From assembly GCA_028286915.1 (NCBI GenBank), contig JAQBQQ010000017.1, positions 4,524 through 68,523 on the forward strand: a stretch of DNA of 64,000 bases, read 5' to 3'. The first letter of the stretch is position 1, and each line of letters starts with the position of its first letter. The translations under genes were made by a program, and so were the position numbers. This document shows positions 26,231 to 28,935 of this stretch, one piece after another. The notes under the pieces are model-generated. The model saw nothing but the letters and a program-made list of their open reading frames with translations. It made no database searches and was not told the DNA's origin. The stretch is from Candidatus Peribacteria bacterium. Its GTDB lineage: Bacteria; Patescibacteriota; Gracilibacteria; Peribacterales; Peribacteraceae.

Positions 26231-26971
26231 TTATATCGATATCACCGATACAGCCCTAAAACCCACCCGTTCTATAGTCCCGGACTTGAAAATTTTCAAA
26301 GCCGCTTCTGTATCAGCACGGCGCATTTCCGCTGTAAACAACATATCCAACCCTGCATCACCTGCTTTCGGAAGGGCTGGATGCAGCACAAACTCCGTTA
26401 GTGGAAAATCTTTAAAGGCTGATAATCGTTCACCGAATTCTTCGGGTTCGCATGGCGATCGTTTGGTGCCTTCGCAATTCCAGCTGTAGAAATTATGCCG
26501 GACATGCGGCGCTTTTAACTGCATGGGTGGAATATCGCCTTCAAACAACTCATTCATCATCTCCATCCACCACGGCAAAATTTTATCATTTATATCGGCA
26601 TTAAAGTTGCCGTGCGTGCTTATGTGTGCCGGGTTCCGGCCAAGCTGATCCCGGAAAAACCTGAGCTGCCGCCGGGCATCTTCAGCAGCTTTTTGTTGCA
26701 TTTCTTTCTGTTCACCCAGGCATGTTCCTTTTCTTTTTAAATCTTTGGTCATCTGCACGCGTTCGGCATCGGATATTCCGCTCAGCTCAAAGTGCAGCCC
26801 GATGGATACATTCGGCATATTCATCATCACTTTTGCCCGCTCTATGGCGCCGGGCTGTTCTATAAGATATTCGGCGCAGAAGGGGAGTTTGGTTTGTTCT
26901 GCCAATGTTTGTATGCCTCTATCTACAGATGCAAACCCGGCATCGTCGCATATAAGGAAGAGGGAGGGCAT
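26231..26971 (-). CDS. ChbG/HpnK (YdjC-like) carbohydrate deacetylase family protein
   Basis: N-terminal LICDDAGFASVDRGI and the IGLHFEL block follow the YdjC pattern (xNADDFGxS..N.GI ... iGxHxxL). Confidence 0.6.
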   Translation of the reverse strand: MPSLFLICDDAGFASVDRGIQTLAEQTKLPFCAEYLIEQPGAIERAKVMMNMPNVSIGLHFELSGISDAERVQMTKDLKRKGTCLGEQKEMQQKAAEDARRQLRFFRDQLGRNPAHISTHGNFNADINDKILPWWMEMMNELFEGDIPPMQLKAPHVRHNFYSWNCEGTKRSPCEPEEFGERLSAFKDFPLTEFVLHPALPKAGDAGLDMLFTAEMRRADTEAALKIFKSGTIERVGFRAVSVISI

Positions 26972-26974
26972 ATT

Positions 26975-27124
26975 ATGTGGATTATAGGATATATAATTGC
27001 TAGTTTATATAGCATGACTACTGATGAGGATATGGAAGATATTAAAGCGATTAAAGAAAGCATGAATGAGCCGACTATTTCTTTTTATGAGGCATTTTTA
27101 CCAGTTGACCAAGCGATAATCTAA
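26975..27124 (+). CDS. possible 49-aa ORF in an AT-rich insert
   Basis: MWIIGYIIASLYSMTTDEDMEDIKAIKESMNEPTISFYEAFLPVDQAII, with GGGAGGG 8 nt upstream. No homology recognised. Confidence 0.2.
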   Translation: MWIIGYIIASLYSMTTDEDMEDIKAIKESMNEPTISFYEAFLPVDQAII

Positions 27125-27130
27125 TTAAAT

Positions 27131-27197
27131 GTTTGCGTATGCCCCGGTTCACAGACGCAAACCCGGCGTCGTCGCAGATGAGGAGGAGAGAGGGCAT
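27131..27197 (-). pseudogene. orphan 5-prime fragment of a YdjC-like paralog
   Basis: Encodes MPSLLLICDDAGFASVNRGI, then diverges. A roughly 65-nt imperfect direct repeat of 26908-26971 (MPSLFLICDDAGFASVDRGI). Confidence 0.6.
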
Positions 27198-27213
27198 AGA
27201 AGATTATAATTTT

Positions 27214-27801
27214 TTATTCCATCAAACGGAACCAGTCACGCATTGTAAGTTGTAATCTTACAATTTCATCATCAGCAAGTTGGCTACAATGGGCTATTGG
27301 ACCTCTGAGGATATTTAAATTAGACATAACTCTTTCTACTGCTTTAATGCTTGAAAAAATTGAAGCAAATACATCCCAATTATTTTTTATAATTTCGCCC
27401 AATTCTCCGAAAGTGCAAAAATCAATCGGCTCTTCAGATCGTGGTGTTACAGCAGAGTCGATTTCTCTCTTTTGCCTTTCTTCGGCAACTTTCCTTAACT
27501 CTGCTTTGATTCTATGGCTTAACCACCAATTTGTGCCTTCTGCAGCACTTAATGTTGCAGTTATTAATCTCCTAACCGTTTTTTCTAAAGAGTAAAAAGT
27601 TTCATAATGCGGAGCCATAATTGCTGCTTCATTTTTTATATCTTGTTCAATTTGTGGATAGTAGGTTTCATCAGCTTCAATTGTATTTTTATGTCCACGG
27701 CTAAGATCTATTCCATATTTTTTTTCCACTTGATCTAGTTCATGCTCTATGAGCTGACTTGTCATTGAAAAATGTTTTATGGAATTAATAATGTTGCTCA
27801 T
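27214..27801 (-). CDS. Swt1-like HEPN domain protein (predicted RNase)
   Basis: Rx4H motif NILRGPIAH (R166/H171, codons 27289-27306), plus NWW and IIKNNWDVF blocks typical of Swt1-type HEPN. About 32% GC. Confidence 0.75.
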   Translation of the reverse strand: MSNIINSIKHFSMTSQLIEHELDQVEKKYGIDLSRGHKNTIEADETYYPQIEQDIKNEAAIMAPHYETFYSLEKTVRRLITATLSAAEGTNWWLSHRIKAELRKVAEERQKREIDSAVTPRSEEPIDFCTFGELGEIIKNNWDVFASIFSSIKAVERVMSNLNILRGPIAHCSQLADDEIVRLQLTMRDWFRLME

Positions 27802-28460
27802 CTATCTATAAGGTGATCGCGTAAGCTTTTAAATATTGCATTAAAAACTGCGATATCTGAAGTCGCAGGTAAATTCAAATTAATTGTATAACCAAGTTTA
27901 ATATCGATACTTTTTTTATCTACCTCTTTTATGGGAGAAAATTTTTGTTCAAAATCTGGTGTTGGCTCACTCTCTAAGACATCTTTTTCGTTTATATCAT
28001 CAAAATTAGCAAGACTGCGTAAAGCTTTGAATGAACCTATTATTGATTTAACTGATGAGGAACTGGCATCTAAGCCGGTAGCTTGAACAATTACACCTTT
28101 TAACTCAGCATCAGAAGCATCATGCACATATTCATTTATTTCATACAAAGCTGCATAGCCTTTTCTTATCCCTTGAGCTGCAGCATGGGGCCTCAATTGT
28201 TCATTTCTAAATTCCTTATATAAATCTGTAGGTGTACCATCGGCATTTAAGAATCCTGTCCTTTTTAGAAAAGGAATAATAGGTCTGGCTGAGCCTCCTT
28301 TTAATGCAAGTTTAGTCGAAAGAAAATCTTGAGTAAAACGATCTGGCGTTGAAGCTGTTTTAATCTTTTCTAAAGTTTTTGTTATAATACCATAAGCGTT
28401 TACATAAGGTACGTTTATTCCTCCATTTTGACCTGCACTTAATGTTTTCGGATTTGTCAT
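27798..28460 (-). CDS. DUF5343-like protein, partner of the HEPN protein
   Basis: TPDRFTQDFLSTKLALKGGSARPIIPFLKRTGFL block as I remember it for DUF5343. Stop overlaps the HEPN start (ATGA). Confidence 0.55.
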   Translation of the reverse strand: MTNPKTLSAGQNGGINVPYVNAYGIITKTLEKIKTASTPDRFTQDFLSTKLALKGGSARPIIPFLKRTGFLNADGTPTDLYKEFRNEQLRPHAAAQGIRKGYAALYEINEYVHDASDAELKGVIVQATGLDASSSSVKSIIGSFKALRSLANFDDINEKDVLESEPTPDFEQKFSPIKEVDKKSIDIKLGYTINLNLPATSDIAVFNAIFKSLRDHLIDR

Positions 28461-28466
28461 AAATGC

Positions 28467-28478
28467 AATTGTACAATT
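28467..28478. promoter_or_regulatory. perfect palindrome AATTGTACAATT overlapping the -10 (TACAAT) of the HEPN operon
   Basis: Minus-strand read: TTGCAT-16-TACAAT-7 nt-ATG(28460). The palindrome covers the -10, as in autoregulated TA operons. Confidence 0.5.
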
Positions 28479-28520
28479 CTATGGGGTATATGCAAATTTA
28501 GTTTTATTTAATTTATCCAT

Positions 28521-28566
28521 TTGACATCCCATCTCACACACCATAACATTCAACCAAATGGTTGAA
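28521..28566 (+). promoter_or_regulatory. arsR promoter TTGACA-17-TAACAT plus inverted repeat TTCAACCA-AA-TGGTTGAA over the start site
   Basis: -35 at 28521-28526, -10 at 28544-28549, ATG 28558 (8 nt later). IR 28549-28566 resembles ArsR/SmtB TGAA..TTCA operators. Confidence 0.6.
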
Positions 28567-28893
28567 CTTTCTTTGGGACTCAGCTTGGACAATATCTTCG
28601 CCTCGTTGGCCGACCCGACGCGCAGGGATATTCTGCGGCAGGTAGCCATAAAGGAGCTGTCGGTATCGGACATTGCCAAGGCGTATAATCTCACTTTTGC
28701 CGCCATCTCCAAGCACCTCAAGGTTCTGGAAAGGGCCAAGCTGATAACCAAGCGTAAGGAGGGGCGTGAACAGATTGTGCAACTGGCGCCGTCTACCATG
28801 AAGGACGCTACAGAATACCTGCGCACCTATGAAAAACTCTGGAACGACCGGTTCGATGCATTGGATGCTTACTTAAAAACTCTTCCCAAATAG
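28558..28893 (+). CDS. ArsR/SmtB-family transcriptional regulator
   Basis: LADPTRRDILRQV...LSVSDIAKAYNLTFAAISKHLKVLERAKLI winged-HTH signature. Confidence 0.9.
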   Translation: MVELSLGLSLDNIFASLADPTRRDILRQVAIKELSVSDIAKAYNLTFAAISKHLKVLERAKLITKRKEGREQIVQLAPSTMKDATEYLRTYEKLWNDRFDALDAYLKTLPK

Positions 28894-28935
28894 CCAAGAC
28901 TCAAAACTCAAGATTCAAGATTCATCCCCCTTTCT

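Follow-up and report, generated by a model that had tools for sequence, protein, structure and literature searches.

What are the two small genes that lie in a low-GC patch of this stretch of Candidatus Peribacteria DNA (64,000 nucleotides of contig JAQBQQ010000017.1, which we call the window), and what might they do together? An earlier note, made from the letters alone, had read them as a candidate defence or toxin-antitoxin (TA) module, a foreign and coupled pair of a DUF5343 gene and a Swt1-type HEPN gene. The domains, the Rx4H motif, and the adjacency of the two genes support the core of that reading. With a probability of about 0.6, we consider the pair to be a TA-like abortive-infection or defence module in which a HEPN RNase effector is restrained by its DUF5343 partner. 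The module in the window is real and well conserved, and it is another instance of a candidate that is already listed in PADLOC-DB as PDC-M34, not a new kind of system. The two genes and their overlap are as follows.

27798..28460, minus strand: gene A, which encodes a 220-amino-acid DUF5343 protein (PADLOC PDC-M34A; GenBank JWM56_557, "hypothetical protein").
27214..27801, minus strand: gene B, which encodes a 195-amino-acid HEPN protein of the Swt1/Abi2 clade, a predicted RNase effector (PADLOC PDC-M34B; GenBank JWM56_556).
27798..27801, minus strand: the 4-nt ATGA in which the stop codon of gene A overlaps the start codon of gene B, read base by base.

These are the exact GenBank records for the pair, from a metagenome-assembled genome (MAG) of "Candidatus Peribacteria", and both are annotated as hypothetical proteins. 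The product of gene A is a 100% match to an NCBI protein of a "Candidatus Peribacteria" MAG. The two minus-strand open reading frames (ORFs) and the ATGA that they share are just where the earlier note had placed them when it described the genes as translationally coupled, and because of this coupling, both proteins would be produced together. Like type II TA systems, the locus has two small genes in one bicistronic operon, one of them with a recognisable toxin domain.

Is gene B likely to encode an active RNase? Its product matches the Pfam family HEPN_Swt1 (PF18731) with 45.4 bits (the cut-off is 27.5; E = 1e-11), and the match covers residues 69-193 (profile positions 3-113 of 115). The HEPN signature that the earlier note had read in this protein lies here:

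27289..27306, minus strand: the codons for RGPIAH, which hold the catalytic-type motif R166-x4-H171 within LNILRGPIAHC.

We verified the codons for R166 and H171. These two residues and N163 are invariant in an alignment of 30 HEPN homologues, and LNxLRxxIAHC is retained in 79 of 80 genomic loci that we describe below. Ahead of the Pfam domain, the protein has a strongly conserved N-terminal extension of 68 residues (YYPQIE...EAAxMAPHYExFYSLE). It is acidic, with an isoelectric point (pI) of 5.5, and the median for the family is 5.1. An AlphaFold2 (AF2) model is all-alpha, with a pLDDT (predicted local distance difference test) of 83, and its best fold match in the Protein Data Bank (PDB) is PbAbiF (8vz6; probability 0.95, TM-score 0.43), a match that is weak (E = 0.46) and the only one in the PDB to a HEPN protein. 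In a sequence search, neither protein of the pair had a relative in the PDB. Bacterial HEPN domains of the Swt1/Abi2 clade are regarded as catalytically active RNases of biological conflict (Anantharaman et al. 2013, PMC3710099), and gene B is predicted to encode such an effector. Metal-independent endoribonuclease activity would be expected of a member of the HEPN superfamily.

Some HEPN domains (those of eukaryotic Swt1 and of MtlR) are inactive binders (PMC3710099), and the roles in this pair might be reversed: the HEPN protein would be a non-catalytic sensor or regulator that binds RNA, with the DUF5343 protein as the output, such as a transcription factor that is released on RNA binding. 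In favour of this explanation, the DUF5343 domain is basic and may bind DNA. Nevertheless, we give it very little credence, because active HEPN RNases are marked by the full N...R-x4-H motif, which is invariant here, and because DUF5343 is also found fused to effector-type domains, which fits a role as a sensor or adaptor.

The product of gene A matches Pfam's DUF5343 (PF17278) with 150.8 bits (the cut-off is 27; E = 3.8e-44) across residues 18-155 (profile positions 1-137 of 140). For both proteins, the profile searches that the earlier note had called for gave scores above Pfam's curated thresholds. Furthermore, the sequence blocks that it had quoted (NWW and IIKNNWDVF in the HEPN protein, TPDRFTQDFL...KRTGFL and LNLPATSDIAVFNAIFKSL in the DUF5343 protein) are present and fall in invariant or near-invariant alignment columns. 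The DUF5343 protein has three parts:

27996..28409, minus strand: the DUF5343 domain (residues 18-155), which is basic and all-alpha except for one beta-hairpin, and winged-helix-like.
27903..27995, minus strand: a variable acidic linker (residues 156-186), predicted to be disordered.
27801..27902, minus strand: an invariant C-terminal tail (residues 187-220, LGYTINLNLPATSDIAVFNAIFKSL...), the proposed HEPN-docking or neutralising element.

The AF2 model of the domain (pLDDT 83-95; pI 9.2) consists of helices and a hairpin at residues 70-78. We searched for similar folds in the PDB and BFVD and found no significant match. The weak, non-significant matches were mostly winged helix-turn-helix (wHTH) proteins, such as MarR, GntR, and SspB. 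Because the fold has no significant match, we use the term "winged helix" tentatively. The linker (pLDDT 43-47; pI 4.5) varies in both length and sequence. The tail, LGYTINLNLPATSDIAVFNAIFKSL, is the most conserved part of the DUF5343 protein, with 16 invariant columns in our alignment (A2). The earlier note had also described the tail as amphipathic, and this did not hold up: the hydrophobic moment of the helix is 0.28, a value that 36% of shuffled sequences reach.

Do the two genes belong together? We surveyed one genome for each of 185,579 species and identified 157 relatives, of which we examined the best 80. (In a protein database, at E <= 1e-3, there were 2182 clusters for the HEPN protein and 4939 for DUF5343.) The best 80 relatives are spread patchily across about 14 phyla, and their proteins are about 46-75% identical to those of the window. 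The phyla are Patescibacteria, Actinomycetota, Acidobacteriota, Planctomycetota, Verrucomicrobiota, Pseudomonadota, Chloroflexota, Nitrospirota, Cyanobacteriota, Bacteroidota, Gemmatimonadota, Spirochaetota, Zixibacteria, and Eisenbacteria. In 76 of the 80 loci, the DUF5343 gene is directly upstream of the HEPN gene and on the same strand. Of the four exceptions, three run into the end of a contig, and in the fourth (L042), the HEPN gene is truncated at its N terminus. Whether the adjacency is conserved across genomes had been raised as a check, and it is conserved in every locus where this can be tested. The distance from the stop codon to the start codon is between -17 and +17 nt in all 68 loci that could be analysed, and the most common arrangement (21 loci) is a 4-nt overlap of ATGA or GTGA. 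We also looked for a third conserved gene, but the 146 immediate neighbours are heterogeneous and none is shared. One genome from the Solirubrobacteraceae (contig CAVWYR010000001.1) has two copies of the pair, L021 and L032, about 850 kb apart.

Has this pair been described before? The earlier note knew of no named system with these two genes, and on this point it needs correcting. Both proteins match component models in PADLOC-DB with near full-length coverage: PDC-M34A (PDLC04589) with E = 1.7e-47 and PDC-M34B (PDLC04592) with E = 1.4e-37. Neither protein matched any other PADLOC system, and no NCBIfam model matches either one. (We judged membership by matches to the component hidden Markov models and by adjacency, rather than by the system rules of the PADLOC program.) The pair in the window has the same order as PDC-M34, A and then B, with the two genes adjacent and on the same strand. 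There is no structural difference; the window's copy differs in that it lies outside any restriction-modification (RM) or BREX locus. Payne et al. 2024 (bioRxiv 10.1101/2024.01.29.577857) define PDC-M34 as cassette CAS_00130 (FAM_01148>>FAM_01657) in their supplement file 8. It is a prediction by "guilt by embedding." The pair has been found embedded in RM or BREX-type loci, and the authors describe these candidates (PDCs) as untested (bioRxiv 10.1101/2024.01.29.577857). We searched the literature for PDC-M34, DUF5343, PF17278, and PF18731 and found no experiment on the pair, and a study that assayed several other PDC candidates did not include M34. Because the pair matches PDC-M34 and our literature search found no test of it, we consider it to be catalogued but uncharacterised. 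To the catalogue entry, our survey adds the obligate pairing, the domain-linker-tail anatomy, the patterns of decay that point to the tail, and the rare fusions of DUF5343.

How might the DUF5343 protein act on its partner? Some decayed copies of the pair bear on this question. In locus L052 (3527-6094), an IS21-like element splits the HEPN gene, and the DUF5343 gene is intact. (The element encodes a 524-amino-acid IstA-like transposase and an IstB-like ATPase.) In L046 (5675-6582), most of the DUF5343 domain has been deleted or frameshifted, and an ORF of 60 codons keeps the tail, immediately before a HEPN gene that is intact. L046 is from a MAG, in which assembly errors are possible, and the decay patterns come from few cases, some of them in MAGs. 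Neither gene is intact in L060 and L030. Among the 80 loci, we did not find any full-length HEPN gene without the tail. This pattern fits a toxic effector that would be held in check by the tail.

By contrast, the tail is missing from two proteins in which the DUF5343 domain is joined to something else. In P0267, which is a singleton, the domain is fused to a Ser/Thr protein kinase from a family that normally has unrelated N-terminal domains. We considered whether those N-terminal domains might be distant relatives of DUF5343 and rejected the idea (hhalign gave a probability under 1%, and the fusion occurs once). P0353 (371 amino acids) has the DUF5343 domain, a coiled coil, and two predicted transmembrane helices, and it may be a membrane-effector variant. 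The decay patterns and the tail-less fusions suggest that the tail acts in trans on the HEPN protein, by docking onto it or restraining it, and that the N-terminal domain serves as a modular unit for sensing or regulation. The P0267 gene lies in L090 (1220-9688), 2.6 kb downstream of a canonical pair, and an IS110 transposase and a 468-amino-acid TIR protein adjoin it.

Put together, these features lead us to propose that the locus is a self-contained, horizontally spread, two-gene conflict module (PDC-M34) that would work as follows. Both genes would be transcribed from their own promoter beside the start codon. The DUF5343 protein would hold the RNase inactive via its invariant C-terminal strand-helix tail, which the disordered acidic linker would tether to the basic, winged-helix-like sensing or regulatory domain. 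When a phage infects or the partner protein is lost, a HEPN dimer would be freed or activated, and the active dimer would cut cellular RNA, phage RNA, or both and stop growth, as in TA-like abortive infection. Here, the RNase activity, the toxicity, the neutralisation by the tail, the trigger, and the anti-phage function are what we infer from the comparisons of sequences and loci. A more specific version is that DUF5343 is a previously undescribed sensor or antitoxin fold that cages the HEPN protein with an invariant C-terminal strand-helix "plug", held on a flexible acidic tether, and releases it when it senses a phage component. We view this version as possible but doubtful. If it is true, then PDC-M34 would be a mechanistically new class, a protein-caged HEPN abortive-infection system, and it would be among the most sequence-conserved defence modules that are common to the candidate phyla radiation (CPR)/Patescibacteria and at least a dozen other phyla.

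Does the promoter region point to a self-regulating TA operon instead? The earlier note had described a promoter overlapped by a palindrome as the layout of such an operon. Both elements exist:

28468..28495, minus strand: a sigma-70-like promoter, TTGCAT-16-TACAAT, which ends 7 nt before the ATG at 28460, with no Shine-Dalgarno sequence.
28467..28478, no strand assigned: a perfect 12-bp palindrome, AATTGTACAATT, which overlaps the -10 box and is probably incidental.

Neither element exceeds what is expected by chance. The region has 5 promoter-like sites, as compared to 6.1 expected, so there is no enrichment. The window contains 23 perfect 12-bp palindromes, and when the 60 nt upstream are shuffled, 4.5% of the shuffles yield one. 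Furthermore, AATTGTACAATT is missing from the closest relatives (L001-L007 and L087), and no inverted repeat recurs upstream of the pair in the relatives that we compared. With a palindrome that is neither conserved nor rarer than chance, the argument for autoregulation fails, and we rejected the palindrome as an operator. More broadly, the conserved operator that type II TA operons have in their own promoter was not found here by sequence comparison. The only upstream element that the closest relatives share is a TAnAAT box, 6-14 nt before the ATG (about 30 nt in L087). A box so near the start codon would give an mRNA that has a short leader or is leaderless, and the sequence implies that the window's transcript is near-leaderless.

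These results bear on whether the pair is a classical, selfish addiction module of type II with no role in phage defence. In such a module, DUF5343 would be a DNA-binding antitoxin that represses the operon at the palindrome and neutralises the HEPN protein, and the module would persist by post-segregational killing or as a genomic parasite. Much of the architecture is as expected for this: the antitoxin-first order, the ATGA overlap, the small genes, the basic wHTH-like domain followed by a disordered linker and a conserved C-terminal segment, and, in the window's copy, the palindrome over the promoter. The decay of L046 and L052 fits equally well. We nevertheless regard a purely selfish module as rather unlikely. 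The palindrome, at chance level, is missing even from the closest relatives; at 220 amino acids, the putative antitoxin is long, and it is very conserved, unlike typical antitoxins, which evolve quickly; and the pair is found embedded in RM or BREX-type loci. Also, a tblastn search with the DUF5343 protein against 72,556 plasmid records, where addiction modules thrive, gave no match. Similarly, the HEPN protein had no tblastn match in 50,697 phage records, and just one locus was found in IMG/VR (2.9 million contigs). Given these results and the lack of PHROG matches, we rejected an origin in a phage, a plasmid, or a satellite.

Where does the pair sit in other genomes? Its GC content is below that of the flanking DNA in 63 of 67 loci, by a mean of 8 percentage points. 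Homology between loci ends at the coding regions, and the flanks are not homologous. Since the homology ends there, we also rejected the idea of a mobile unit with conserved ends or inverted repeats. In 11 of the 60 loci scanned (L002, L004, L005, L006, L010, L027, L031, L035, L040, L045, and L060), the module is no more than 400 bp away from a gene for a tRNA or tmRNA. By our estimate, for which no background was computed, this is far above the expectation from the density of tRNA genes, and it is typical of the insertion sites of genomic islands. We examined the contexts of nine relatives by Pfam annotation:

L093: the pair is embedded between type IIG RM genes.
L087: the pair is beside a methyltransferase and MutH.
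L090: the pair is beside TIR, IS110, and PIN genes.
L092: the pair is beside IS481 and RHS genes.
L094: the pair is in a cluster with a Schlafen-like helicase, a MazG-like protein, and DUF2726.
L096: the pair adjoins another HEPN family, DUF4145.
L099: the pair is in a serine-recombinase element.
L081 and L098: the pair is in plain housekeeping settings.

Could the pair instead be a two-subunit cellular RNase, such as an RNA-processing or stress-response factor that acts on host RNAs, with DUF5343 as the specificity subunit and HEPN as the catalytic subunit? The high conservation across phyla would be natural for such an enzyme, as would the absence from the phages, plasmids, and viral contigs that we searched (aside from the one IMG/VR locus) and the location of several copies, including the window's, among housekeeping genes. 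However, a cellular factor should not be so extremely patchy (157 matches in 185,579 species' genomes), shifted towards AT in 63 of 67 loci, or surrounded by non-homologous flanks. Neither would it be expected at tRNA-adjacent sites and next to RM, insertion sequence (IS), recombinase, and TIR genes, to be disrupted by an IS element or frameshifts, or to occur twice in one genome (L021 and L032). We consider this explanation improbable.

Several points do weigh against our proposal that the pair is a TA-like defence module. The DUF5343 fold has no significant structural match, and the HEPN fold matches solved structures weakly (E = 0.46). The contact between the tail and the HEPN protein is proposed from sequence conservation and from just one decayed locus, which comes from a MAG. 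The association with defence islands is a matter of context counts without a comparison to the background; L081 and L098 have housekeeping neighbours, and in the window, the module stands among housekeeping genes and outside any defence island. Both proteins are unusually conserved across phyla for genes in an arms race. Finally, as mentioned above, our literature search found no experiment on the pair.

How does the pair compare to known systems with a HEPN RNase? In the HEPN-MNT systems (type VII TA, such as SO_3166/SO_3165 of Shewanella), a small HEPN RNase with Rx4-6H is also encoded in a two-gene operon with its partner directly upstream, and both kinds of pair are widespread and horizontally mobile. 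However, the partner in the window is DUF5343, which does not match any nucleotidyltransferase family even at E <= 1, and the window's HEPN protein belongs to the Swt1/Abi2 clade, not to DUF86/HEPN, and has the conserved 68-residue N-terminal extension. Without a nucleotidyltransferase domain, the DUF5343 partner would not be expected to neutralise by AMPylation, and the pair is not a HEPN-MNT system.

The AbiF/AbiD (Abi_2) systems share the Abi2/Swt1 clade of HEPN domains (Anantharaman et al. 2013, PMC3710099), and PbAbiF, whose structure (8vz6) was solved with its non-coding RNA (ncRNA) bound, is the best, if weak, structural match. In contrast to these systems, the window's HEPN protein does not match Pfam's Abi_2, the locus has no upstream repeat array or Rfam RNA, and the partner is a protein. 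The combination that marks AbiF/AbiD-type or type III TA systems, Abi_2 with an adjacent ncRNA encoded by repeats, is not seen. We had considered an RNA antitoxin or a known ncRNA at the locus and rejected it, since there are no tandem repeats within 26800-28900 and no Rfam match. Because there is no repeat array and no known RNA family, an RNA antitoxin like those of AbiF or ToxIN is unlikely.

In RnlA-RnlB and LsoA-LsoB (type II TA, active against phage T4), a HEPN RNase is believed to be held in check by a protein partner. Our functional model for the window's pair is likewise a TA module with a second role in phage defence. The order and the sizes differ, as RnlA is a large multidomain toxin that is encoded first, followed by a small antitoxin, and searches of Pfam, PADLOC, and NCBIfam showed no similarity of the window's proteins to RnlA/RnlB or LsoA/LsoB. 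If PDC-M34 works as a defence or TA system, then it would be a further case of a HEPN RNase under protein control, with a partner that lacks known relatives by fold, and it would give a function to DUF5343, a family of thousands of sequences. The module is compact (1.25 kb), highly conserved from Patescibacteria to Pseudomonas, and easily testable.

How did the module reach its location in the window? It lies in a low-GC island, from about 26973 to 28550. The GC content of the module is 0.345, as compared to 0.50 in the remaining window. The earlier note had argued for foreign composition from counts of G+C in two segments, and our recounts agree (19/60 at 27601-27660 and 32/60 at 28561-28620). 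The pair is an intact, horizontally acquired two-gene cassette, and this copy is solitary and recently acquired. On one side of the module is a ydjC-like gene (26231-26971), and on the other are ArsR and AHSA1 paralogues. Between the ydjC-like gene and the module are:

27137..27198, minus strand: a diverged copy of the 5' end of the ydjC-like gene, which marks where the acquired DNA ends downstream (repeat D1; 82% identical to 26911-26972).
26973..27136, no strand assigned: an AT-rich spacer of 164 bp (GC content 0.31), between the intact ydjC-like gene and the duplicated 5' end.

The truncated gene fragment that had been reported beside the module is real, and it is this copy, a 62-nt piece of normal GC content inside the low-GC island. 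It is identical to the 5' end of the ydjC-like gene at 51 of 62 nt (11 nt differ) and at 18 of 20 amino acids. The differences between the two copies (27137-27198 and 26911-26972) are mostly synonymous, and for this reason we think that the copy came from an orthologue in a related genome. This suggests that recombination brought in the module from a donor in which it already lay beside ydjC. The spacer had no match in Pfam, PHROG, or Rfam and was not seen in the related loci. It contains a small ORF on the plus strand (26975-27124), which we set aside; it matched no family.

We also considered whether the window as a whole might be a defence island, and rejected this. The other PADLOC matches are single and to generic domains, and we did not recognise a complete defence system among the matches to PADLOC models elsewhere in the 64 kb. 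The Pfam content is mainly housekeeping, such as an AAA_2/Clp-type ATPase, a YgjP-like peptidase, and ABC ATPases. The isolated, single-component PADLOC matches are PDC-M37B (E = 5.8e-43), DolB, mad3, AriA, and Csa3. The segment 28558-31585 encodes an ArsR-family regulator and then, in tandem, four AHSA1/SRPBCC paralogues and a Polyketide_cyc2 protein. The starts of these paralogues carry short direct repeats (D2 and D5).

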